Source: an uncultured archaeon
GTDB taxonomy: Archaea > Iainarchaeota > Iainarchaeia > Iainarchaeales > VGJJ01
Direction of reading: 5' to 3'
DNA: 64,000 nt
Assembly (NCBI GenBank): GCA_964363635.1
Contig: CAYIIU010000001.1
Location: 5,112 to 69,111, forward strand
Shown: piece after piece, positions 6,119 through 61,873 of the stretch
Numbering within the stretch: the first letter of the stretch is position 1
How the letters are laid out: each line of letters opens with the position of its first letter
The notes under the pieces: generated by a model
Seen by the model: only the letters and a program-made list of their open reading frames with translations
What the model was told of the DNA's origin: nothing
Databases searched by the model: none
Translations under genes and position numbers: made by a program

Positions 6119-6592
6119 TTAATCCCCGTGGGCTTTGAGGAAGGACTCAATTTCCTTAGCAAGGACTTGCAACTCGACTCGCGTGAGGTCGCTGCCGGCG
6201 CGGATGATGTAGATTTTCCCGTTGTAGGGGAAAATCATGAACCAGTTTTCTTTGTCTTTCACGAGAATCGTTTCACTTTCAGGCAATTCCGTCTTGATGT
6301 AATTGAACATCGCGCTTCCGATGATGGCTTCCGAAAAATCATTCTCATCCGTGGAAATGACAATGCTTCCATTGGGGGAGCAAATGCAAATCGAATCGAC
6401 CAAATGCTTTTTTTTCATGGATTGAACTAATTCCTGGATGGACGTGGTGTTCAATTCAAGTTTGTGGCGCGACAAAAAAGTGTTCAACAATTTCATCTGC
6501 TCCTGCGGCGTGTGATTGTCATCTACATCGAGCACGCGCTTGGTCATACTGCGCACAAATTGTTTTACTCCGCGAATCACCATATTATTCAT
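6119..6592 (-). CDS. Small protein, possibly of roadblock/LC7 type, upstream of the MinD-like ATPase
   Basis: The 157-aa protein has a segment HLVDSICICSPNGSIVISTDENDFSEAIIGSAMFNYI that resembles the roadblock core. The assignment rests on weak pattern similarity only. Confidence 0.3.
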   Translation of the reverse strand: MNNMVIRGVKQFVRSMTKRVLDVDDNHTPQEQMKLLNTFLSRHKLELNTTSIQELVQSMKKKHLVDSICICSPNGSIVISTDENDFSEAIIGSAMFNYIKTELPESETILVKDKENWFMIFPYNGKIYIIRAGSDLTRVELQVLAKEIESFLKAHGD

Positions 6593-9550: not shown

Positions 9551-11077
9551 TTACTTTTTTTCTATTTCAAACTTAGGGAACAAAACAGGCCCTTTGACGA
9601 TTTTCTTTCCGCTCAACGAAGGGGTTTTGTTCAGCGCCGTGAACGAGGGCTTTTCGAAACCAATTTGTGAAATTATTTTCTCGCACGTTTGGGGAAGGAC
9701 GGGTGCGAGAAGGATGCTCAGCACGCGGATGATTTCAATCTCCGTAGCAAGCAGCGACTCTACTTCCGCACGCTTGCCCTCTTTCATTAATTTCCACGGC
9801 TCGGTATCGGCGATGAATTTGTTTCCCACCGCGGAAACCTTCATCACTTGAACAAGGGCATTCTGAATGTCATGCTCCAAATAGAAACGATACGCTTCCT
9901 GCGCGTGAACGCGGGCTTGTTGAAGAACCGCCTCATTCAATGCCGCGTCGGGAATGACTCCATTCGTGTATTTTTCCATCATGGATAACACACGAAAAAC
10001 CAAATTGCCGAGACTGTTTCCTAATTCAGAGTTGGCACGCTCGACGAGGTTCTTTTCCGAAAAAGCAATGTCATTTCCCAATGGGACTTCGCGTAAGAGG
10101 TAATAGCGCAGGGCTTCCATGCCATATTTTGGAATAATTTGCAATGGGTCAACGCCATTTCCCAAACTTTTGGAAAATTTTATTCCATTTTCATCATTAA
10201 CGAAGCCATGAACGATAACTTGCTTGGGCAAAGCAATATTCGCGCTCATGAGCATGGCAGGCCAGAGCAATGAATGAAAGCGGTTGATGTCCATCCCGAT
10301 AACATGTACATCTGCCGGCCAAAAGTCCGTGTATTTCTTTTCGGGAAAACCGCACACCGTAAGATAGTTCACGAGGGCATCAGACCACACGTACATCGTG
10401 TGCTCCGGATTCACGGGCGTGGGAATTCCCCACTTGATGGATTTGCGAGAGAACGAAACGTCGTGCAATCCTTGCTTGAGAAAATTTTCCATCTCTTTCT
10501 TTCGAAACTCCGGAAAAACATTTCCAGGGGTTTGCGCGTACCACTCTTCGAGCTTTTTTTGAAACGCACTCCATTTGAAAAAATAACTTTCCTCTTTGAC
10601 CTTTTTCAATTCCTTTCCGCAATGCGTATTCGGGCAGAAGCGCTTGCCGAGCTTTTCAACGGTGTCCTTCTCTGTCCAGAACGTTTCGTCCGAAACACAA
10701 TACCATCCTTCGTACATGTCGGGGTAAATGTCATCGTTGTCCCACATTAATTGAAAAAAATGCTGCGCGGCTTTCACGTGATCCGCGTCAGTGGTGCGGA
10801 CGAAGCGGTCGTAGGAGATGAGAGCCATGTCCATGAGCTTCTGGAATTCAGCCGACATCTCATCCACAAATTGTTTGGGAGGAAGATTGGCGTGCTTCGC
10901 GGACTCGGCGATCTTTTCGCCGTGCTCGTCCGTGCCAACCGTGAACAAGACTTTTTCACCATTCAGACGGTGAACGCGGGCAATGACATCCGCTACCGTC
11001 TTCTCGTAGACATGACCCATGTGCAATTTTGCATTAGGGTAGTCAATCGCGCACGAGATGAAGAAACCCTTGGACAT
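9551..11077 (-). CDS. metG: Methionyl-tRNA synthetase
   Basis: HMGH is the class I HIGH motif and KFSKS is the KMSKS motif. A Zn knuckle CPNTHCGKE is present. Confidence 0.9.
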   Translation of the reverse strand: MSKGFFISCAIDYPNAKLHMGHVYEKTVADVIARVHRLNGEKVLFTVGTDEHGEKIAESAKHANLPPKQFVDEMSAEFQKLMDMALISYDRFVRTTDADHVKAAQHFFQLMWDNDDIYPDMYEGWYCVSDETFWTEKDTVEKLGKRFCPNTHCGKELKKVKEESYFFKWSAFQKKLEEWYAQTPGNVFPEFRKKEMENFLKQGLHDVSFSRKSIKWGIPTPVNPEHTMYVWSDALVNYLTVCGFPEKKYTDFWPADVHVIGMDINRFHSLLWPAMLMSANIALPKQVIVHGFVNDENGIKFSKSLGNGVDPLQIIPKYGMEALRYYLLREVPLGNDIAFSEKNLVERANSELGNSLGNLVFRVLSMMEKYTNGVIPDAALNEAVLQQARVHAQEAYRFYLEHDIQNALVQVMKVSAVGNKFIADTEPWKLMKEGKRAEVESLLATEIEIIRVLSILLAPVLPQTCEKIISQIGFEKPSFTALNKTPSLSGKKIVKGPVLFPKFEIEKK

Positions 11078-21197: not shown

Positions 21198-21419
21198 ATG
21201 GTTAAAAATATGAAAAAACAAGTAAAGAGCATGAACGATGCCGATTCTATTCAAGTACTACAGCAGAGAATGGATCATTTAGAAATGAGAATGAAAGCGC
21301 TTTCGGTAAAAGAAGTTAAACCAACAAAGCAAGATTTACACGACATTCGCCAAGCCCGCAAAGATATTGCTGCTGGAAAAGTAATTCCTTGGTCTAAAGT
21401 GAAAGAACGCCACGGGTGA
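21198..21419 (+). CDS. Putative antitoxin, addiction-module component of the TIGR02574-like type
   Basis: The small helical protein ends AAGKVIPWSKVKER. That C-terminal motif, (G)xIPWEEVK, is characteristic of that antidote family. It sits immediately upstream of a RelE-family toxin. Confidence 0.55.
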   Translation: MVKNMKKQVKSMNDADSIQVLQQRMDHLEMRMKALSVKEVKPTKQDLHDIRQARKDIAAGKVIPWSKVKERHG

Positions 21420-21425
21420 CCAAAA

Positions 21426-21698
21426 ATGGACACTTTTTATGTCGAACTCACCCATCGGGCTGAAAAAGAATACTCTAAACTGGAACCCAAACTAAAAGAA
21501 AGAGTACGGAAAGCCATTAACGCGCTCGCTCAAAATCATGCACCAAAAGAGGAATTTGATGTGGAAAAACTTAGTGGAACCGACTCTGAATATCGCATTC
21601 GAATTCAAACCCACCGCATCAAATATACTGTTTATCACGATGCTAAAAAGATTACTATTTTCAGAATTGAGCGCAAAAAGGATAGAACCTATAAATAA
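21426..21698 (+). CDS. RelE/ParE-family toxin
   Basis: The 90-aa protein contains SEYRIRIQTHRIKYTVYHDAKKITIFRIERKKDR, the RelE pattern YRI..G.YRIiY.v......I..I..R. Confidence 0.7.
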   Translation: MDTFYVELTHRAEKEYSKLEPKLKERVRKAINALAQNHAPKEEFDVEKLSGTDSEYRIRIQTHRIKYTVYHDAKKITIFRIERKKDRTYK

Positions 21699-25189: not shown

Positions 25190-26292
25190 TGGCTGGACTC
25201 TCAACGAAAGATAAGGAAGTCATCAAGAAACTCGAAGTATTGGGAAACCAGCTCGTTTCGCAGATTAACAAGGGAGATAATCCGTCGATGGAACTGCCAG
25301 TCCGTTCACTTGGAAACATTTTCTTCGACCAAAAGTCACGAACCATCAAATTAGGAGACAAAACATCCGAACGACAATTCCTGAACATTGCCCACACGCG
25401 AAAATTCATGCAAACCACGCTTGTGGCGAATGAAATCAAAAAAGTCATTCAGCAGAATGCCACAGTATCCATTCGTGATCTCTATTACGCACTCAAACAT
25501 ACCATTGAAGGGACGCAGGAGAATACTTTCGAAGACCAGTCCGAAAGTGATCCTCTTGTGGAAGACGTAGAAGCCTCGCTCAATTTGCTCCGCGAAGAAT
25601 TGCATCTTGCAGCATCGGCGAAAGGAATCATCGCCGGAGACATGGTGGTGCAGGATGGAAAGGACATCATTGATTTAGCCAAAATGGGTTCAGGCGGATG
25701 GTCCGTCCCCTCGAATGTGGAAGAGGACCGAATTGAAATAAAGAAAATGAAAGCCGACTATGTGCTTTTCATCGAAAAGGACGCTGTGTGGCGACGCTTC
25801 AATGAAGATAAGTTCTGGGAGAAAAATAATTGTATCATTATTACTGGTCGTGGACAAGCGGCGCGCGGAGAACGACGATTCGTTCAGCGTTTGAGCCGCG
25901 AACATAAATTGCCCGTGTACGCACTCATGGATGCGGACCCGTGGGGAATGTACATTTACTCGGTGATCAAACAAGGATCCATTTCACTTTCGTATTCGGA
26001 AGAAAAACTCGCCACTCCCGATACGAAATACATCGGTTTGACGGTTGGAGATGTGGACAAGTTCAAAATCCCCAAAGAAGTGACGATTAAACTCAACACG
26101 CTTGATTTGAAACGCTTAGATGAACTCAAATCATACGAGTGGTTCAAGCACAAGAAATGGCAGCAAGAGTTCGACTTGATGAAAGAGAAAAACATCAAGA
26201 TGGAATTGGAAGCCCTTTCCAAAAAAGGAATCCGCTTCATCACGGAGGAATACTTGCCACGAAAGATTAAGGACGAAGACTTCCTTCCATGA
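25189..26292 (+). CDS. top6A: DNA topoisomerase VI subunit A (Spo11 homolog)
   Basis: IRDLYY contains the catalytic Tyr region. ALMDADPWG is the Toprim DxD motif. The size is 367 aa. Confidence 0.9.
   Translation: MAGLSTKDKEVIKKLEVLGNQLVSQINKGDNPSMELPVRSLGNIFFDQKSRTIKLGDKTSERQFLNIAHTRKFMQTTLVANEIKKVIQQNATVSIRDLYYALKHTIEGTQENTFEDQSESDPLVEDVEASLNLLREELHLAASAKGIIAGDMVVQDGKDIIDLAKMGSGGWSVPSNVEEDRIEIKKMKADYVLFIEKDAVWRRFNEDKFWEKNNCIIITGRGQAARGERRFVQRLSREHKLPVYALMDADPWGMYIYSVIKQGSISLSYSEEKLATPDTKYIGLTVGDVDKFKIPKEVTIKLNTLDLKRLDELKSYEWFKHKKWQQEFDLMKEKNIKMELEALSKKGIRFITEEYLPRKIKDEDFLP
26212..26292 (+). repeat. Direct repeat copy 1, the authentic 3' end of top6A
   Basis: It encodes ALSKKGIRFITEEYLPRKIKDEDFLP*. 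Confidence 0.7.
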
Positions 26293-26428
26293 TTCTTTTC
26301 ATGGCTTTAACCGATTGATTGCCTTCAAATGGCCAAATTCAAGTCAAAAGATACATCAGTCTAACACTTGTTAATTTGGCGACTTAGCACCCCAACCATT
26401 AAGATATTGTCTGTTTTGAGAAATAAGT

Positions 26429-27274
26429 ATGGATAAGCAGGTCATCACACAGCTTACAAAAAAGTTTGAGGAGTATACCCGAGAAGCGGGGGGAATAGAG
26501 TTTTGGTTTGCAAGAGACCTTCAAATCCTTTTAGACTATGATAAATGGGAAAATTTTCTAAATGCAATCGACAAAGCAAAAATGGCTTGTACAAACTCAG
26601 GCTACGACTTAAATGACCATTTTCCCGGCATCAGGAAAATGGTTGATATTGGTTCAGGAGCAAAAAGAGAAATTGATGATATGATGCTGACCCGGTATGC
26701 GTGCTATCTCATTGCGCAGAATGGAGACCCTAGGAAGGAACAAATTGCTTTTGCTCAAAGCTATTTTGCCATCCAGACAAGAAAGCAGGAATTGATTGAA
26801 CAAAGAATAGGACTGCAAGAACGAATGTATGTGAGACAAAAACTCATAACTTCTGAAACAGAACTTTCCAAATTAATCTATGAGAGGGGAGTCGATGATA
26901 ATGGTTTTGCTAGAATCAGAAGCAAAGGAGACCAAGTTCTATTTGGCGGTTATTCGACTGGTCAGATGAAAAGTAAACTAGGAATCCCCCAACATAAACC
27001 ACTAGCCGATTTTCTCCCAACCATTACCATAACAGCCAAAAACCTTGCAACGGAAATTACTAACTTTAATGTTAAAAAAGAGGAATTGCGAGGCGAAAAT
27101 ACTATCACAAAGGAACATATGAGAAACAATTCAGATGTGCGGGATTTATTGAACAAGCGCGGAATAAAGCCCGAAGAACTCCCGCCCGAAGCGGATATTA
27201 AAAAGTTAGAAAGAAAAGTCAAGAAGGATGAACAAAAAATGGCCAACCGTTCAAAACACCAAAAACTAAATTAA
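26429..27274 (+). CDS. dinD: DinD-like protein, DNA-damage-inducible protein D family, normally bacterial
   Basis: FEEYTREAGGIEFWFARDLQILLDYDKWENF, HFPGIRKMVDIGSGAKREIDD and LTRYACYLIAQNGDPRKEQIAFAQSYFAIQTRKQEL are present. They closely resemble E. coli DinD as I recall it. The gene is more AT-rich than its flanks. Confidence 0.6.
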   Translation: MDKQVITQLTKKFEEYTREAGGIEFWFARDLQILLDYDKWENFLNAIDKAKMACTNSGYDLNDHFPGIRKMVDIGSGAKREIDDMMLTRYACYLIAQNGDPRKEQIAFAQSYFAIQTRKQELIEQRIGLQERMYVRQKLITSETELSKLIYERGVDDNGFARIRSKGDQVLFGGYSTGQMKSKLGIPQHKPLADFLPTITITAKNLATEITNFNVKKEELRGENTITKEHMRNNSDVRDLLNKRGIKPEELPPEADIKKLERKVKKDEQKMANRSKHQKLN

Positions 27275-27322
27275 TCCGGTTAAACCAGCGAAAACCTTTA
27301 GGAAATTTTTGGGAAGACGATG

Positions 27323-27402
27323 CCCTATCCAAGAAGGAAATCCGCTTCATCGCGGAAAAATACTTGCCACGAAAGATTAAGGACGAAGACTTCCTACCTT
27401 GA
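27323..27402 (+). repeat. Direct repeat copy 2, a diverged duplicate of the top6A 3' end, about 90% identical
   Basis: It encodes ALSKKEIRFIAEKYLPRKIKDEDFLP* in frame. A 37-nt stretch, aatacttgccacgaaagattaaggacgaagacttcct, is identical to copy 1. Confidence 0.7.
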
Positions 27403-27438
27403 CAGCAACTATTTATTCAAGCGAAATTCTAGTTTGAC

Positions 27439-28143
27439 ATGCCTGTTTATCGCCGTAATAGAAAGGTCAAAGTAATATCGGAATCGCGCACAATTCTTAG
27501 TTGGATATTTCGAAGATTATCAAAGAAACGACCAAAATCGCCTCATCTTTTGGCAACCAGCCGAATTGTTCGACGTAATGGAAGACGCACCTTTAAACTA
27601 GCCAAGGAATGGCTTTTCACGCACAGTGGGCTAAACCAAGTGGAAAAGGCATATGGTCTACCAGCAGGAGCTAAATTAGGAGATATTATCAACATGGCTG
27701 AAAAAAATGATCGGAAAAATCCGCTCAATGTGGTTGAGTGGGGATGTGGTGCAGGCGTAGCATTATCTGAATTAGCACAAAAAAATGAGTATGGAAATCG
27801 AACCCGTTTTTTCGGATTCTCCGATGAGGCCTTTTCGCAATGGGAAAAGTATTTGAAAGCGGTTTCGTTTATTCAAGCGCCTGCAACTGACTTTCAACAC
27901 TATTTGAAAAAAATTAGACCAGGGGTTATCTTTTCGCACTATGGGCTGATTCACCTTTCTCCAGCAGACCTTGCCCAACATATCAAAGAAATTGCTCCTT
28001 ATCTGCGCCCAAAAGGTTTTATTGTAACAGATTACAAATCAAGAGAATATGAAAATCCACAAATCATGATCGATATTTTCGCGCGGGCGGGTCTAAAATT
28101 GATGGCCACAGGCAAAAACGCACTCGTGTTCCAGAAGGACTAA
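27439..28143 (+). CDS. Putative SAM-dependent methyltransferase
   Basis: VVEWGCGAGVALSEL is motif I, the glycine-rich SAM loop. The very basic N-terminal 85 aa may not be translated. An internal start at MAEKND is possible. Confidence 0.45.
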   Translation: MPVYRRNRKVKVISESRTILSWIFRRLSKKRPKSPHLLATSRIVRRNGRRTFKLAKEWLFTHSGLNQVEKAYGLPAGAKLGDIINMAEKNDRKNPLNVVEWGCGAGVALSELAQKNEYGNRTRFFGFSDEAFSQWEKYLKAVSFIQAPATDFQHYLKKIRPGVIFSHYGLIHLSPADLAQHIKEIAPYLRPKGFIVTDYKSREYENPQIMIDIFARAGLKLMATGKNALVFQKD

Positions 28144-28149
28144 CGCTAA

Positions 28150-29580
28150 TTGCCAGCGCAACAATCGGGGAATCCATATAAAGCCCAATTTTACTCTGAG
28201 AGCATGCCTACCAACCTAGAGTATGCCTTCTCAGCGAAAAGCGTTGCCGTGATTGGGGCATCGCGAAACCCGGGAAAAATAGGGTATGTTACGCTGGAAA
28301 ACTTTGTGAAAGGGGGGTTTCGAGGCAAACTATTCGCGGTGAACCCGAGCGCGGAATCTATTCTGAATGTGAAATGTTTTCCATCCATTTCTGCCATCAA
28401 AGACAAGGTGGAATTAGCCGTCATCACCATCCCCGGAGAATTCGTCCCAAAAACGATTGAAGAATGCGGAAAAAAAGGTGTAAAGGCATGCATCATTATC
28501 TCCGCGGGATTTTCAGAAGTGGGAAACGCTCAACTGACTAAAAAATTGCAATCCGCCATGAACAAATACCCCTCCATGAAATGCATCGGACCCAATTGTT
28601 TGGGAGTGTTAGACACTCATTCCAATATTGACACCCTATTCTTGCCGCGCTACCGCTTGATGCGGCCTAAACGCGGAAAGATTTCCTTCATTTCTCAAAG
28701 CGGAGCATTGGGAAGCGCAGTGTTAGACTGGGCCGGAAGCAAAGAGTATGGAATCAACAAATTCATCTCATATGGAAATGCCATGAGCACGGACGAGGCG
28801 GATTTGTTGGAATATTTGGCCGAAGACAGGGATACGAAAGTCATTTGCGTGTACTTGGAAGGCGTGCGCAACGGACAGAAATTCTTCAAAGTTGCAAAGA
28901 AGGTCTCCGAGAAAAAACCCGTGATTATCATCAAAGGCGGAATGAGTGAAGCCGGAGGAAAAGCCACGGCCTCGCACACGGGAAGCCTGGCGGGAAACGC
29001 TAAAGTGTTTGATGCGGTGGTCAAACAGACCGGACTCATCCGCGCCGATAGCATGAGGCAAGTGTTTGATTACGCACGCGTGCTCGCGAGCGAACCTCGA
29101 CCCAAAGGAAACCGAGCGCAGATTATCACGAATGGAGGAGGATATGGGGTCCTCACCGCGGATGCATTATCCGATTCGTGCTTGAATTTGGCCGAGATGA
29201 GCGCCGAGTCGCGCAAACCCATTATCGCTGCGTCTCCTTCCTATGCCGTAATCAAAAACCCAATGGACTTAACGGGAGACGCGGACAACAACCGTTTTAT
29301 GGTAGCGATGGACAACGCACTCAAGGACGGGAATGTGGATTCCATTATTTTGATCCTATTATTCCAAGTTCCCACACTCGATTCGGATATTATTGAAGGC
29401 ATAAGCGGATTGCTCACGAAACGAACAAAGCCTGTTCTCGTGGTGAGCGCCGGCGGGGAATTTGCCAAAATGCACATGAAATTATTGGAAAAAGAAGGAA
29501 TACAAACATTCGAGGAACCCATTGACGCGGCGAATGCACTGCATGCGCTGACATATTATCATCATGGCAGTAAAAATTAA
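28150..29580 (+). CDS. Acyl-CoA synthetase (NDP-forming) alpha-type subunit / CoA-binding domain protein
   Basis: The N-terminal CoA-binding Rossmann fold reads KSVAVIGASRNPGKIGY. A succinyl-CoA-synthetase-like alpha domain contains SQSGALGSA and a CoA-ligase region. No beta subunit is adjacent. Confidence 0.6.
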   Translation: MPAQQSGNPYKAQFYSESMPTNLEYAFSAKSVAVIGASRNPGKIGYVTLENFVKGGFRGKLFAVNPSAESILNVKCFPSISAIKDKVELAVITIPGEFVPKTIEECGKKGVKACIIISAGFSEVGNAQLTKKLQSAMNKYPSMKCIGPNCLGVLDTHSNIDTLFLPRYRLMRPKRGKISFISQSGALGSAVLDWAGSKEYGINKFISYGNAMSTDEADLLEYLAEDRDTKVICVYLEGVRNGQKFFKVAKKVSEKKPVIIIKGGMSEAGGKATASHTGSLAGNAKVFDAVVKQTGLIRADSMRQVFDYARVLASEPRPKGNRAQIITNGGGYGVLTADALSDSCLNLAEMSAESRKPIIAASPSYAVIKNPMDLTGDADNNRFMVAMDNALKDGNVDSIILILLFQVPTLDSDIIEGISGLLTKRTKPVLVVSAGGEFAKMHMKLLEKEGIQTFEEPIDAANALHALTYYHHGSKN

Positions 29581-32009: not shown

Positions 32010-32183
32010 GCTCGTAAAACAACGCCTTGCATTAAAACCCTTGCCCAGATTATCCATATGGTCGCTCGGTGGATTTTGGGGAATGTAAAATTCCCCAAGA
32101 AGCCACATGATTGAATGTTGTAGGGGTACCGCCCCGCGGTACCCGTACGCATTTTGATCAAACTTTTGCGATAGCAAAAGTTT

Positions 32184-32254
32184 GCGGGGGTGGCAGAGAG
32201 GTTATGCGCCGGCCTGCAGAGCCGGATAGCCGAGTTCGATTCTCGGTCCCCGCT
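32184..32254 (+). tRNA. tRNA-Cys (anticodon GCA)
   Basis: The acceptor stem is GCGGGGG/TCCCCGC. The anticodon stem CCGGC/GCCGG flanks the loop CTGCAGA. The T-arm is CCGAG-TTCGATT-CTCGG. Confidence 0.85.
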
Positions 32255-32345
32255 TACGATTAGTAAACCGTACGCGCCAATCATCGGGTTAATCGGCGAT
32301 GCCCCGAGCACACCTTTTTATTGAATCAATACAGTAATAGATAGT

Positions 32346-32534
32346 ATGAGCGACACTGCTGTACTAAAAGCCATCCAAACCAGGCTTGAGACCATGGATA
32401 CTAAACTAAATGCCTTACTCGTGAAAGAGGAAGCTCCAACCAAAGAAGAACTACGCGCGATGAAACGCGGACATAAAGAAATCGCCGAAGGAAAAGTAAT
32501 TCCTTGGGAAACGGTAAAAGCTCGAAACCAATAA
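32346..32534 (+). CDS. Putative antitoxin, paralog of 21198-21419
   Basis: It ends AEGKVIPWETVKARNQ and lies immediately upstream of a RelE toxin. Confidence 0.55.
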   Translation: MSDTAVLKAIQTRLETMDTKLNALLVKEEAPTKEELRAMKRGHKEIAEGKVIPWETVKARNQ

Positions 32535-32546
32535 AGGCCCTCTATC

Positions 32547-32819
32547 ATGTCTGTCTATACTGTCGAATTGACGCGCGTAGCAGACAAACAATACACCAAA
32601 CTCGAACCCAAAATGAAAGAACGTATCAAAGAAGCCATTGACGCTCTCCGTGAAAACCCCGCACCAGTGAACCAATTCGATGTTACCAAAATAACTGGAA
32701 GCCAATCCGACTATCGTATCAGAATAGGAGACTATCGAATCCAATACACCGTAAACTGGAAAGAAAAATACGTCAAAGTGTACGACATTGACCGAAAGAA
32801 AGATCGAAGCTACAAATAA
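32547..32819 (+). CDS. RelE/StbE-family toxin, paralog of 21426-21698
   Basis: SDYRIRIGDYRIQYTVNWKEKYVKVYDIDRKKDR matches the RelE pattern. Confidence 0.7.
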   Translation: MSVYTVELTRVADKQYTKLEPKMKERIKEAIDALRENPAPVNQFDVTKITGSQSDYRIRIGDYRIQYTVNWKEKYVKVYDIDRKKDRSYK

Positions 32820-32929
32820 GCAATTTTTTCACCAAAAAGTATAGACCTATAATACCACGTTGACCCTAAGGAAATGGGCAATCAGGGTGTTGAATTACCA
32901 TGGACAGAGACCCGATCCGTTGTCCGGAC

Positions 32930-32945
32930 TCTCGGTCCCCGCTTA
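32930..32945 (+). repeat. 16-nt exact repeat of the tRNA-Cys 3' end (tctcggtccccgctta), an att-like site
   Basis: It is identical to 32241-32256 inside and just after tRNA-Cys. Confidence 0.55.
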
Positions 32946-33060
32946 TACTTTGGCGTTGAAGCGCTGTGGGAATAGTAGAAAAACGCGCTTTAACTGGGAT
33001 GCGAATCTTGGCTTGTCAATGTACCAAAAAAGATTTATTGAGGGATAGTAGACAATAAGC

Positions 33061-33405
33061 ATGTCATTAAAGAATCACAAACAGATATTTGCAGGAGCAC
33101 TAATTATAGTTTTTCTATTTTTTGCTTTTATTGTAAGTGGCTTTTTGGTAATTATAGAAGACAATTACGAAACTCCATGTGATGAACTTCCAACCACACA
33201 TGAATCCCAACAAATTTTATCAGCACACACCCAGGAACAAAATCAGGTAAACGCTATTTCCTTCGGAATGAGTATTGATACCTCTCGATGTCCTGGGAAA
33301 GCCGAAATTGTTATCAATTATCAAACTTTATCTGATCGACAAAAAATAAAAGACCTAATTGGAAACACTTTTTTTGGCATTCCCTATCGAATGAGCAACA
33401 ATTAA
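33061..33405 (+). CDS. Hypothetical small membrane-anchored protein
   Basis: The N-terminal TM helix is FAGALIIVFLFFAFIVSGFLVII. Confidence 0.4.
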   Translation: MSLKNHKQIFAGALIIVFLFFAFIVSGFLVIIEDNYETPCDELPTTHESQQILSAHTQEQNQVNAISFGMSIDTSRCPGKAEIVINYQTLSDRQKIKDLIGNTFFGIPYRMSNN

Positions 33406-33539
33406 ACAGGCAACAGCAAATTACCACGTTTCCAATTCGTTCAGAAACTCACCCTTACTCATTTTGATAAACTTTCCTTCATCATGTCTTTTCCAGGCTT
33501 TTTCAACGCGCTTAGAAAATATTGCATTATTCATAACAA

Positions 33540-33797
33540 TCAAATCCGCTTGTAAATAGTACTACGATGACCCACTACGCGCACCCAAATAATATCCGGG
33601 TTTCTTTCCACATCAACAATGGCGCGATAATCTCCAACCCGAATTTTGTGCCCATATTCTTTATCGTTAATGGATTCGATTCCGCGACCAGTTTGGGCCA
33701 CTTCACCCAATTTTCGAACAATCCGGGCCGCCACATCCTTTGGAAGCTTTTCTAACTGCTTCTCCGCTTTAGGGTCGTAACGGACCTCATAGGTCAT
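33540..33797 (-). CDS. RelE/ParE-family toxin
   Basis: HKIRVGDYRAIVDVERNPDIIWVRVVGHRSTIY is the ParE/RelE core. Confidence 0.65.
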   Translation of the reverse strand: MTYEVRYDPKAEKQLEKLPKDVAARIVRKLGEVAQTGRGIESINDKEYGHKIRVGDYRAIVDVERNPDIIWVRVVGHRSTIYKRI

Positions 33798-33988
33798 CGA
33801 AACTTCTTTTCCATTTCCTTTTGAGACTTAAACTCAATGTGAGCCCGTTTGCGGGATTCTTTTACTTGTGCTTTCGTTTCGTCATTTAATTCAAATTGGG
33901 ACTCTTCAAAGAGTTCTCTGAACTCATGCAAGTCCCTTTGGATTGCATCCACTTTAGTATTGATTTGTTTCAACTCAGTTTCAGTCAT
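33794..33988 (-). CDS. Putative antitoxin partner of the ParE/RelE toxin
   Basis: The 64-aa helical ORF overlaps the toxin start by 4 nt. Confidence 0.45.
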   Translation of the reverse strand: MTETELKQINTKVDAIQRDLHEFRELFEESQFELNDETKAQVKESRKRAHIEFKSQKEMEKKFR

Positions 33989-34123
33989 ATTAAATTAGGC
34001 GTCAAAAGACTATATAAAAATACCCACGCCAAATCGCCAAAAAAGCTTAAATCAGTTTATGTATCCAATCAGAGTCCAGAAAGTAGCACTTTAACACGCA
34101 GTATAGGAACGGCCTCCGCTTAT

Positions 34124-34333
34124 TTATTCCTTTATTCCGAGAGACACTAAACGTCGGCTGAAACGCGTGGAGAACTTTTTCGAGTGGCGGGATTTTTCAA
34201 CGATTTTATCAAAAACGGCTTCTCTTCGTTCATCGGATTCTCTCCGGTCTCGCTTGATTTCCCGCACGATTTCCCCCATTGAAACGGGGCTATTTTTGTC
34301 GGAATATTTATCAAATGGAAATTTCTTTTTCAT
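34124..34333 (-). CDS. Hypothetical small basic protein
   Basis: It overlaps the PIN gene end by 4 nt. No motif is recognised. Confidence 0.25.
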   Translation of the reverse strand: MKKKFPFDKYSDKNSPVSMGEIVREIKRDRRESDERREAVFDKIVEKSRHSKKFSTRFSRRLVSLGIKE

Positions 34334-34716
34334 AGATTCACCACCTGTGCATTAGGAAGGTTTCTAAAATCATTGTCGGAAGAAATGAGCAATGCTCCTG
34401 CGGAAAGGGCAGATTGATAGATGATGCTGTCCATGGAAGCGAGGTGATGCTGAACGCTTATCTCGGCGGATTTCAAAGCAATGTCTTCATCGATTGGAAC
34501 AATCGTGCTGTTTTCGTGCATGAAGCGAATGACTTCTTTGACGTAGGCTTCATTCGTCTTCAAGCGAATGAGACGGCGTGGCACTTCGTGAAAACAAACA
34601 ATGGACGTGAGCAATTTTCCTTCGTGGGAGTCCATCATTTTTCCCACCAGCTCGTCCGTGTGGAGGAAATAATCCAGCCAGATGCTCGAATCAATGAACA
34701 AGTTAGTATTTGTCAT
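34330..34716 (-). CDS. vapC: PIN-domain toxin (VapC-like)
   Basis: The N-terminus LFIDSSIWLDY carries a conserved Asp. The acidic PIN residues lie in FHEV...DSIIY...SSDNDF. Confidence 0.7.
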   Translation of the reverse strand: MTNTNLFIDSSIWLDYFLHTDELVGKMMDSHEGKLLTSIVCFHEVPRRLIRLKTNEAYVKEVIRFMHENSTIVPIDEDIALKSAEISVQHHLASMDSIIYQSALSAGALLISSDNDFRNLPNAQVVNL

Positions 34717-34933
34717 TCTTATCCCTCAATCCTTTCAAAATTTCCTTCATGGAAATATCCTTTCCTTCATCGGCCAAAAAGCCATGCAAGGACTTCGTCT
34801 TCTTCTGAATCAATTGGTTGATGACTGCATCATAGGTTTTCATGCCATACGCCTCCTTGAGCGAGTCTAAAAATTTCTTCGTGCCTTTTTCCACCTGAAT
34901 CGTTGTCGTGTCTACCACTAAAATCACCATCAA
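34703..34933 (-). CDS. vapB: Putative VapB-type antitoxin
   Basis: It is a small ORF of 76 aa that overlaps the PIN gene start. Confidence 0.45.
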   Translation of the reverse strand: MMVILVVDTTTIQVEKGTKKFLDSLKEAYGMKTYDAVINQLIQKKTKSLHGFLADEGKDISMKEILKGLRDKNDKY

Positions 34934-35016
34934 CTATAGTGCTATAGTATTTAAGAATTCGTGTGCGAGAACGCCGAGGAAGAGATGTTTAAACACATGC
35001 GAATACCCATAATGAT

Positions 35017-35622
35017 ATGGAAAATTCAACTGCTTTTTTCGAAGCCATTACCGCGTTGGAAGGACTCAAGAAACGCGCCCGCGCAGGATGGGTTAAGCGC
35101 GGCGTGAAAAATGCGGAAAGCGTTGCCGACCATTCATGGCGCGCAGGACTCATGGCCTACATGCTCGCGCCCGAAGGATACGATAAAGACAAAATGTTGA
35201 AGATGGGGCTCATTCATGACGCCACAGAAATATTTGGAGAGGATTACACCCCCGTAGATGGGATTGCGAAAGAAGAAAAAGAAAAAAAGGAACGTGAAAC
35301 GGCAGAAAACTATTTCAAATTGTTGCCTAAGAACTTGCAGAAAGAATTTCGCGGATTGTGGGAAGAATTTGAAGAACGAAAAACAAAAGAAGCGCAGTTC
35401 GTAAAACAAATCGAAATATTAGAAATGCTATTTCAAGCCCTGGAATATGAAACAGAAGAAAACTTCAAACAGGATTTGACGGAATGGTTGGAATACGAGA
35501 AAAACAATCGAAAAACAGAATGGCATCCGGTGCTAAAACATTATTTTGATGAAATTGACAAACGCTGGCCCGCGGAAGCGAAAAAGAAATTTGACGCGAG
35601 CAAATACAAGTACCATTACTAA
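35017..35622 (+). CDS. HD-domain phosphohydrolase, resembling the YfbR-type 5'-deoxynucleotidase
   Basis: RAGW...ESVADHS contains the H-D motif. LIHDATEIFGEDY contains the second HD. Confidence 0.7.
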   Translation: MENSTAFFEAITALEGLKKRARAGWVKRGVKNAESVADHSWRAGLMAYMLAPEGYDKDKMLKMGLIHDATEIFGEDYTPVDGIAKEEKEKKERETAENYFKLLPKNLQKEFRGLWEEFEERKTKEAQFVKQIEILEMLFQALEYETEENFKQDLTEWLEYEKNNRKTEWHPVLKHYFDEIDKRWPAEAKKKFDASKYKYHY

Positions 35623-37032: not shown

Positions 37033-37806
37033 ATGGGATTGAGACCTGCACACTGTTATCGAGGGCAAGACAAGCCCGCCTATTGCCGCATCGCGGTGAC
37101 GGTTCATGATAAGAACTTCATCGGAACGAATCCCCATTTGCGCACACGACAGTTCAACATGGGAAACCCCCTCAAGAAATACTCGCACATCGTAGACCTT
37201 TACTGCAACGCAGGAGACGTTCAAATCCGCGACAACGCCATTGAGTCCGCACGCTTGAACGTGAATCGTGCGCTAATCAAATCACTCGGAAAAGAAAACT
37301 TCTTCATGCGACTCCGAATTTATCCCTTTCACATTATCCGCGAAAATAAGTTAGCACAAGGAGCCGGTGCCGACCGTGTCTCGTCCGGAATGAAACACGC
37401 GTTCGGAAAACCCATTGGAAAAGCCGCGCGCTTGCGACAGGGAAAAGTTATTTTGTCTGTTTTATGCGACGAGACGCAAATCTCGGAAGCCAACCGCTGC
37501 CTCATGCGAGCGATGCCAAAAATGGGATTCCCCATGGGCGTGCGCGTGCACCAAGACTTGGAATCCATTGGAAAATTGCCCAAGAAAATGCGTGAAGAAA
37601 AAGTGGAAGTGGTTGCCGAAGTCGCAGCCGACGGAACGACCGCTCCCGCAGCCGAAGGAGACGCTGCCGCCGCCGGTGCCAAAGGCGCTGCAGCCCCCGC
37701 GAAAGGAGCCGCGCCTGCCAAAGCCGGTGCCAAGGATGCCAAGCCCGCCGCGGGTGGAAAACCAGCTGCCGGAAAAGAGGACAAAAAGGATGCCAAGAAA
37801 AAATAA
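37033..37806 (+). CDS. rpl10e: Ribosomal protein L10e (uL16) with an Ala/Lys/Pro-rich C-terminal extension
   Basis: MGLRPAHCYR, KPAYCR, MGNP, IRDNAIESARLNVNR, RIYPFHIIRENK and FGKPIGKAARL form the L10e core. After about residue 175 there is an 80-aa tail (AAPAKGAAPAKAGAKDAKPAAGGKPAAGKEDKKDAKKK). Confidence 0.85.
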   Translation: MGLRPAHCYRGQDKPAYCRIAVTVHDKNFIGTNPHLRTRQFNMGNPLKKYSHIVDLYCNAGDVQIRDNAIESARLNVNRALIKSLGKENFFMRLRIYPFHIIRENKLAQGAGADRVSSGMKHAFGKPIGKAARLRQGKVILSVLCDETQISEANRCLMRAMPKMGFPMGVRVHQDLESIGKLPKKMREEKVEVVAEVAADGTTAPAAEGDAAAAGAKGAAAPAKGAAPAKAGAKDAKPAAGGKPAAGKEDKKDAKKK

Positions 37807-61406: not shown

Positions 61407-61652
61407 TCACTCGTACACGTGACCCCGGTCGTCTAACCATGCAAACTGAATGGTCGTGTCATTTACTCTGTAAATAATTCGAAGATTCTCGATGCGCTCG
61501 CTCAAGTAGTGCTGCAGGGGCGCGTGAAGCGGTTTTCCCAACGCAGGATTTTCAACGATTTTCAAAATCTTTTTCTTAACGAGTTCTTGCTGATGTGGGT
61601 CCAACTTTTTATACTGTTTCTTGAAGCGCTCCGAATAGAAATAGTCGACCAT
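61407..61652 (-). CDS. RelE/ParE-family toxin
   Basis: The 81-aa protein contains LRIIYRVNDTTIQFAWLDDRGHVY. Confidence 0.6.
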   Translation of the reverse strand: MVDYFYSERFKKQYKKLDPHQQELVKKKILKIVENPALGKPLHAPLQHYLSERIENLRIIYRVNDTTIQFAWLDDRGHVYE

Positions 61653-61654
61653 TT

Positions 61655-61873
61655 TTATCGATCCAAATCGTCAATCATCGCTTGGATGGTTGTAAATTTT
61701 TTCCCTTTGCCCTGCTGAACTTCCTCCATTGCTTTCCAAAAATCGGGCTTGCTGAATAGTTGCAAATCTTCTAAATACGATTCAAATTCGCCCTTCAAAC
61801 GCGCAGCCTCTTTTCTCAGCGCGGGAATGGATTGGGCTTGCAGTAGGGTGGTATTCATTTTGGATCGCTTCAT
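61655..61873 (-). CDS. Putative antitoxin; the start is uncertain, either the internal Met at 61873 or at 61858
   Basis: It is a helical ORF immediately upstream of the toxin. The ORF as listed runs into the rpoL stop. Confidence 0.4.
   Translation of the reverse strand: MKRSKMNTTLLQAQSIPALRKEAARLKGEFESYLEDLQLFSKPDFWKAMEEVQQGKGKKFTTIQAMIDDLDR

Follow-up and report, generated by a model that had tools for sequence, protein, structure and literature searches.

Probable serial insertion at the 3' end of a tRNA-Cys gene in an uncultured archaeon of the Iainarchaeia, with toxin-antitoxin pairs among the retained cargo

The DNA that follows the gene for tRNA-Cys in an uncultured archaeon of the Iainarchaeia was analysed within a stretch of 64,000 nucleotides (contig CAYIIU010000001.1 of assembly GCA_964363635.1), the whole of which is called the window and supplies the coordinates used here. 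Our results support the reading of a repeat of the tRNA-Cys 3' end as a scar of integration at an attachment (att) site, i.e., the repeated tRNA end bounds an insert, the tRNA gene is intact, and the empty sites of relatives join at the repeat. The locus is probably the product of serial integrase-mediated insertion at this att site, followed by the loss of everything but toxin-antitoxin (TA) pairs and small cargo. A first-pass annotation had proposed a single decayed, tRNA-targeted integrative element at 32184-34933 that retains only addiction modules. The att scar, the inserted DNA and the lack of an integrase hold, but the inserted DNA appears to cover only 32257-34109, where at least two tandem units with different ends (here E1 and E2) carry more than addiction modules, and the PIN/VapBC genes at the far end do not belong to it.

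The target gene, tRNA-Cys (GCA), lies on the plus strand at 32184-32254 (attB/attL; ARAGORN; Rfam tRNA, 56.2 bits) and matches the tRNA region of the relative L140 without a difference over 74 nt. Its last 14 nt and 2 flanking nt form the 16-nt core TCTCGGTCCCCGCTTA, which is composed of the 3' strand of the T-stem, the 3' strand of the acceptor stem, the discriminator U73 and the 2 further nt. An exact repeat search places this core twice in the window and on the same strand, at 32241-32256 (att copy 1) and, as first claimed, at 32930-32945 (att copy 2), where it marks the junction of E1 and E2 and is followed by a left arm of E2 type. With one mismatch the repeat extends to 19 nt (32238-32256 versus 32927-32945). 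By simple arithmetic, about 3e-5 occurrences of one given 16-mer site are expected by chance in 128 kb (both strands), which bears out the earlier judgement that coincidence is unlikely, and the same boundary is marked in relatives. A tRNA or tRNA-like gene hidden at 32930 was considered as another source of the second copy and is ruled out, as ARAGORN calls no tRNA there, Rfam gives no match at E<=1, and shuffled sequences fold just as well as the 91 nt around it (z = -0.03). A separate observation concerns the upstream side of the gene, where a hairpin abuts the first base of tRNA-Cys (32164-32187, AAACTTTTGC-gata-GCAAAAGTTT). Hairpins in the same position occur in L004 (9864-9884), L250 (about 104-125) and L140 (10113-10128), and L140 and L251 have a different sequence in it, AAGGGG-cgaaa-CCCTT; the structure thus appears to be conserved and the sequence not.

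The extent of the insertion emerges from about twenty contigs of relatives around the tRNA-Cys locus, labelled L004, L140, etc. Their gene order is kept, namely Mre11, HAD (minus strand), tRNA-Cys (plus), a variable stretch, a geranylgeranyl-reductase-like gene (GGR, minus) and L10e (plus), and the stretch 3' of tRNA-Cys is different in nearly every genome. The neighbouring genes of the window are archaeal (Mre11-like, HAD, GGR, L10e, Top6A/B, eIF-1A and RIO1), homologs of its HAD protein carry the labels Candidatus Diapherotrites or Iainarchaeum, and the contigs identical to it derive from Hainich groundwater wells. Empty sites are seen directly in two relatives. L140 is collinear with 18822-39738 at 73-80% nucleotide identity; its positions 10188-10379, comprising the tRNA end and the sequence downstream, align to 34110-34300 (82% identity), and its tRNA-Cys directly abuts a homolog of the 69-aa open reading frame (ORF) that follows the PIN gene in the window. 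L120, from another Hainich well, has the order HAD, tRNA-Cys, small ORF-PIN-VapB and HD, which equals the window minus 32257-34109. At the position of the L140 junction the window holds a third, eroded att copy, CGGCCTCCGCTTA (34110-34122, plus strand), with a 12/13 match to the tRNA-Cys end of L008, L013 and L126. This copy represents the former tRNA 3' end, pushed outward, and marks the real distal limit of the inserted DNA. The eroded core and the two empty sites together delimit the inserted DNA, on the strength of sequence comparison, to 32257-34109 (1.85 kb), with a G+C content of 35-43% against 45-50% in the flanks.

Beyond this boundary lies a three-gene operon on the minus strand (34124-34933), in which an ORF in the VapB position (34703-34933), named by its position, precedes a PIN/VapC gene (34330-34716; PIN 1.3e-14, 55.3 bits versus a cutoff of 23.6) and the 69-aa ORF (34124-34333). 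The first two overlap by 14 nt, and this combination of a PIN toxin with an overlapping small upstream ORF is that of a VapBC pair; the NCBIfam VapC model remains below its cutoff. Homologous operons occupy the same locus in L120, L126, L011 and L013, and L140 has the small ORF only. The operon follows tRNA-Cys without a repeat in L120 and L013, as the small ORF alone does in L140, it is located beyond the repeat in L011 and L126, and it occurs together with HD in L120 and L126. Because it is shared at the locus and stands repeat-free after the tRNA in relatives, we consider the operon an old resident rather than part of the insertion. The comparison of neighbourhoods therefore upheld an insertion after tRNA-Cys and took from the island as first drawn its last third, for which relatives show exactly what the first-pass annotation had named as telling against it, the same genes after the tRNA with no repeat. 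The next gene, for an HD-domain (YfbR-like) hydrolase (35017-35622, plus strand; HD_3 2.8e-43), is a locus resident that is itself variably present: it was found in L004, L008, L010, L120 and L126, is absent from L005, L007, L011, L013 and L140, and is truncated in L009. There, only its first ~45-50 codons are left after tRNA-Cys (9700-9850, minus strand), and an unrelated 231-aa ORF on the other strand replaces the rest, which is further evidence of turnover at the locus. Strain-level variants with an identical HAD protein differ here as well. L004 has a glycosyltransferase-like gene that starts 3 nt after the tRNA, plus HD, and both genes are missing from L005 and L007, where the end of the GGR gene comes next after the tRNA; a tRNA-end repeat was not detected at the locus in these three.

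E1 occupies 32257-32929 (673 bp, plus strand), as delimited by the repeat and by the relatives, and consists of a 51-nt left arm, an ORF in the antitoxin position (32346-32534), a RelE/ParE toxin gene 12 nt further on (32547-32819; ParE_toxin 1.5e-7) and a 110-nt right arm. None of the relatives examined carries E1 after tRNA-Cys. Homology elsewhere is limited to 32308-32818, with the same TA cassette occurring at 76-79% nucleotide identity in L096 and L098, whose toxins are 84-89% identical to that of E1 at the amino acid level and stand in unrelated contexts where the E1 arms do not occur; blastn found no match to these arms anywhere. With its perfect repeat and its position between the tRNA and the left arm of E2, E1 is best explained by an insertion that came later and used the same core.

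E2 (32946-34109, plus strand) is recognised by the homology of its arms. The left arm (32946-33021) is in itself an arm-only unit, made up of a 9-nt spacer, the left inverted-repeat arm IR-L (GTTGAAGCGCTGT, 32955-32967), a 14-nt loop, the right inverted-repeat arm IR-R (AACGCGCTTTAAC, 32982-32994) and a 15-nt spacer. The sequence after the internal repeat reads tactttggc-GTTGAAGCGCTGT, and the hairpin at 32955-32994, with its 13-bp stem, folds with z = -2.4. In alignments this arm is homologous to the sequence directly after the tRNA in L126, L011, L109 and L251, and 32933-33021 is collinear with a unit of L251 (unit a; blastn 90% over 29 nt). Positions 33010-33021 within it are possibly a fully eroded core. 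The right arm (34075-34109, plus strand), consisting of TCCAGAAAGT, an eroded IR-R (AGCACTTTAAC) and a 14-nt spacer, aligns with the right arms of L011, L126 and L109, i.e., with the sequence before their downstream copy of the tRNA end. As both ends are homologous to insert ends in relatives, E2 is a member of a family of inserts whose ends are conserved and contain, one at each end, the arms GTTGAAACGCGGT and ACCGCGCTTCAAC of a 13-nt inverted repeat; the contiguous site has the layout IR-R(ACCGCGCTTCAAC)-15 nt-CGGYYCCCGCTT-9/10 nt-IR-L(GTTRAARCGCGGT).

The cargo between these ends is different in each genome. By Pfam, L126 carries a Vut_1 transporter and a small membrane protein and L011 a double helix-turn-helix regulator, L109 encodes unknown proteins, and the window has a membrane protein and a ParE pair. 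The former is a 114-aa protein with an N-terminal hydrophobic segment (33061-33405, plus strand) that matches nothing in Pfam or NCBIfam and is nearly an ORFan, with one distant homolog (36% identity); a search for the parent element through this protein led no further, since the homolog lies on an uninformative contig of 1.9 kb. The ParE pair belongs to an operon of three ORFs overlapping by 4 nt on the minus strand (33421-33988), with an ORF in the antitoxin position (33794-33988), a ParE/RelE toxin gene (33540-33797; ParE_toxin 1.6e-7) and a trailing 40-aa ORF (33421-33543). The E1 and E2 toxins score 32.3 and 32.2 bits for ParE_toxin, above the Pfam cutoff of 23, and fall below that of the NCBIfam RelE_StbE model (21.4 versus 27.9). 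The gene content originally assigned to the locus thus stands in Pfam for the two ParE toxins, PIN and HD_3, and the antitoxin labels are positional only, as none of the three ORFs concerned (32346-32534, 33794-33988 and 34703-34933) matches a Pfam or NCBIfam family. BLASTP gave no alignment between the trailing small ORFs and the antitoxins.

Comparable insertions recur at tRNA-Cys. In L010, L011 and L126, an insert of 0.75-1.33 kb ends at an exact 12-13 nt copy of the tRNA-Cys end found in the same genome. Beyond this distal copy comes the flank which, in relatives with an empty site, adjoins the tRNA, and L008 provides that empty site for L010. L109 shows the same order of tRNA, insert, exact copy and conserved flank. 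In total, integrase-less inserts of 0.67-1.33 kb occur at tRNA-Cys in five genomes. Occupied and empty sites are interleaved on a neighbour-joining tree of the HAD protein, which requires repeated gains or repeated precise losses. A metagenome scan for the core returned mostly chance matches in GC-rich bacteria, with L103, L109, L120, L126 and L140 as the only relevant contigs.

An integrase stands beside the same arms in one relative, L251, a Diapherotrites contig of 418 kb whose HAD protein is 70% identical to that of the window. Starting from its tRNA-Cys, which ends in a first core, L251 has a left arm separated by 14 nt from a right arm, a second core, a left arm separated by 16 nt from a right arm, a third core and a left arm, and about 50 nt past this last left arm begins the gene for a tyrosine recombinase of 427 aa. 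The protein matches Phage_integrase (4.8e-23) and PHROG integrase families, and its XerA-like match is below the cutoff. Genes for the small and large terminase subunits follow, and the contig then ends. We conclude from these genes that a predicted head-tail provirus with a tyrosine integrase occupies the tRNA-Cys of L251 and that its att arms are of E2 type. Between tRNA-Cys and the integrase gene (6201-6440, minus strand), L251 thus holds two tandem units without cassettes, each formed by a core, a hairpin with a 13-bp stem and the next core. Each of its three cores, CGGCCCCCGCTT, CGGTCCCCGCTT and CGGCTCCCGCTT, is identical to the tRNA-Cys allele of a different lineage. The two arm-only hairpins fold with z = -1.8 and -4.6 and show a compensatory change at one stem position between the units. 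Arm-only units with arms 14-16 nt apart are thus found at 32955-32994 of the window and, as a pair, in L251.

The island itself was described as free of an integrase, and this was borne out. The island ORFs have no recombinase domain in Pfam or NCBIfam, and the suggested search for pseudogene remnants, a TBLASTN with the L251 integrase, gave no match in 32255-35000, where non-coding DNA amounts to ~680 bp in total, and reached E = 0.03 at best in the window. No recombinase was found among 20 window ORFs without clear relatives that were scanned. An integrase gene split across the att copies, as in the SSV type of spindle-shaped viruses, was also considered and rejected, since the ORFs over the two copies are in different frames and the rejoined junction would span ~31 codons. 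Searches of viral contigs with the tRNA-Cys core, three island proteins, the intact palindromic site and the arm motif (93 chance hits) gave nothing relevant.

In the scenario we favour, the tRNA-Cys 3' end would be an attachment site that integrative elements have reused in this clade of the Iainarchaeia (DPANN). A crossover between the tRNA end and an identical core of 12-16 nt on the incoming element would rebuild the tRNA and shift the former tRNA end to beyond the insert. E2 would have entered first, bringing arms of the type that flanks the tyrosine-integrase gene of the L251 provirus, and its distal core would have eroded since. E1 would have come later, between the tRNA and E2, leaving the perfect 16-nt repeat. 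Both units may then have lost their recombinase, each keeping a RelE/ParE pair and E2 also the small membrane protein, and the PIN/VapB operon and the HD gene would have been at the locus beforehand. We infer from the shared arms that an integrase of this class acted here, and the small size of the units would result from decay; TA pairs were plausibly kept because addiction modules resist loss when the rest is deleted. Arrays that arise by reuse of an integration site are documented for archaeal elements with tyrosine recombinases (PMC6563490), integrase-less remnants that keep attL and attR and later undergo accretion are known as cis-mobilizable elements (CIMEs; PMC5704250), and tRNA fragments are well-documented by-products of integration in archaea (PMC9897764). 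RelE/StbE pairs are also reported among the cargo classes shared by the chromosomes of small-genome groundwater lineages and co-sampled mobile elements (bioRxiv 10.64898/2026.05.20.726742).

Several observations weigh against serial insertion and decay. Neither the island nor the rest of the window contains any remnant of an integrase, and integrase and arms are linked by standing side by side in one relative, on a contig that breaks off within the provirus before its distal att site comes into view. E1 cannot be tied to any enzyme, its arms having no significant inverted repeat. The nine contigs from the same site (Hainich) are all collinear with the window, with no excised or empty variant among them. 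The five integrase-less inserts are uniformly tiny, which independent random decay would not obviously produce, and as such inserts recur in four other genomes, simple random decay is not the sole option; intermediate stages of decay were not found. Finally, core-to-core excision by an integrase cannot create arm-only units, which serial insertion leaves unexplained.

These points invite other explanations, among which we consider one that involves mobility in trans doubtful but worth stating. E1 and the E2-type inserts could be small non-autonomous cassettes, i.e., att arms enclosing one to three genes, that are moved by a tyrosine integrase such as that of the L251 provirus. The uniform size of the five inserts in five genomes, their seemingly intact ends and differing cargo, and their patchy distribution on the HAD tree would fit, and the arms of the window and L251 are ~83% identical over 46 nt, above neutral expectation, compared with ~70-75% in coding DNA. 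Units without cassettes adjoin the integrase gene in L251, and each junction of IR-R, core and IR-L forms an imperfect palindrome of ~65 nt. Yet no circular or alternatively located copy of any unit was found, the TA genes of E1 occur elsewhere without its arms, and the scans of viral contigs for core and arms yielded nothing relevant. If cassettes did move in this way, the tRNA-Cys platform would be loosely comparable to an integron array. Integron arrays consist of small, co-oriented cassettes, often TA pairs, whose attC sites are imperfect palindromes with GTT at the palindrome edge and R''/R' boxes at the base of the stem. Small cassettes, the palindromes of ~65 nt and an array bordered on one side by a gene for a tyrosine recombinase (in L251) are common to both, whereas in the tRNA-Cys sites the duplicated segment is the central core and the AAC/GTT motifs lie at the inner end of the stem, not at its base. 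The cargo has both orientations and its own promoters, unlike integron cassettes, and the L251 integrase is not IntI, scoring 48.6 bits against the cutoff of 265 of the integron-integrase model (integrase_gron). With no integrase in the window and cargo on both strands, an assignment to the integron family was rejected. The most far-reaching version of the cassette idea, which we regard as unlikely, is that tRNA-Cys of the Iainarchaeia is a modular platform with palindromic sites of ~65 nt (IR-R, a core that imitates the end of the tRNA, and IR-L) recombined by provirus-type tyrosine integrases, so that a cargo of zero to three genes, TA pairs included, would be exchanged between lineages and the cassette-less units of L251 would be working parts, serving as spare sites or as a host-range device, and not leftovers.

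It is very improbable that the repeats are target-site duplications made by a transposase, with the units as non-autonomous derivatives of casposon-like elements. Casposons of families 1 and 2 do insert at the 3' end of tRNA or protein-coding genes with duplications of ~14-15 bp and have inverted repeats near their ends (PMC5137440, PMC4779613); the 12-16 nt duplications seen here lie within the casposon range, a 13-nt inverted repeat stands near both ends of the E2-type units, and tandem insertion into one target is described for casposons (PMC6563490). The inverted repeats of the E2-type units, however, are subterminal and lie at unequal distances from the core (9-10 nt and 14-15 nt on its two sides), the identical block varies with the insert (12, 13 or 16 nt) instead of being fixed, and the sole enzyme next to these ends is a tyrosine recombinase. 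The island has no Cas1, and neither Cas1 nor PolB is in the gene lists of the locus. The cores of L251, moreover, match the tRNA-Cys alleles of other lineages, as would copies of att carried by an element and not fresh duplications. The reading on which the 16-mer has no mechanistic meaning, and reflects chance, an unrecognised tRNA-like gene or a side effect of homologous recombination among diverged genomes, could appeal to the four other families of exact direct repeats of >=16 nt in the window (five in all, with that of the tRNA end). It is effectively refuted by the placement of the repeat exactly at the tRNA 3' end and at the start of the E2 left arm, by the four other genomes with an equivalent repeat at an equivalent boundary, and by the second copy, which shows no tRNA call, Rfam match or unusual fold.

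Among known systems, the closest parallel to serial insertion at tRNA-Cys is the accretion of streptococcal CIMEs with ICESt1 and ICESt3, which are integrative and conjugative elements (ICEs; PMC5704250). The units of the window likewise keep attL and attR and lack genes for integration and transfer, a later element enters an att site belonging to a resident unit (giving the order target, att, unit, att, unit, att), and insertion occurs at the 3' end of a gene that is regenerated. They differ in their host, a DPANN archaeon, in the tRNA-Cys target, in their far smaller size of 0.67-1.2 kb and in having no conjugation genes; the autonomous partner, found in a relative, is a head-tail provirus and not an ICE. 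Archaeal proviruses and cryptic elements integrated in tRNA genes (Thaumarchaeota, PMC6563490; Thermococcaceae, PMC9897764) are also flanked by direct repeats of the 3' portion of the tRNA, leave partial tRNA copies, occupy sites in tandem and sometimes carry TA cargo. Most examples in the literature measure 9-23 kb or more and encode an integrase, in contrast to the integrase-less units described here with their repeat of 12-19 nt. The putative TA pairs resemble type II systems (RelE/ParE, VapBC) in that a small upstream ORF abuts or overlaps a toxin gene, in toxins that score above Pfam thresholds and in the presence of several paralogous copies per genome in variable regions; they are unlike them in that the antitoxins match no described family and two operons have a third, trailing small ORF.

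Insertions and TA operons are also found elsewhere in the window. The last 91 nt of top6A, including the stop codon (26202-26292), are repeated 1.1 kb downstream (27312-27402) with 86% identity and an exact core of 37 nt. The two copies bracket a gene with a Bro-N domain (26429-27274), a methyltransferase-like ORF (27439-28143) follows, and the insert spans 26293-28150; in L140, L004 and L008, top6A directly abuts the CoA-ligase gene. Here a second insertion, again without an integrase, is accompanied by duplication of the 3' end of the target gene. A paralogous pair of antitoxin and RelE/ParE toxin (21198-21698; ParE_toxin 1.2e-7), which shares an exact 18-mer with the antitoxin gene of E1, separates the genes for eIF-1A and the RIO1 kinase, which are adjacent in L140, L004 and L008; no flanking repeats were found at this pair. 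A further ParE_toxin gene (81 aa, 5.5e-7) with a 72-aa ORF upstream lies on the minus strand at 61407-61873, bringing the TA-like operons to at least five in the window. The L10e (uL16) gene at 37400-37806 encodes a C-terminal extension of ~60-70 aa rich in Ala, Lys and Gly, with a local G+C content of 58%.

What we describe is a known phenomenon, well resolved in a little-studied lineage, with a small unexplained component in the arm-only units. For annotation, the lesson is that gene content draws an island too wide; here nothing but the comparison with empty sites told the insert apart from the old VapBC operon. The locus yields candidates for an att site, composed of a core with inverted-repeat arms, and for the integrase of a head-tail provirus of the Iainarchaeia. 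More generally, it is a sequence-resolved example of how a reduced DPANN genome may gain accessory genes, in which one tRNA gene would admit elements repeatedly, the history of entry would be recorded in nested copies of its end, and TA pairs would be what remains once the rest of an element is gone.

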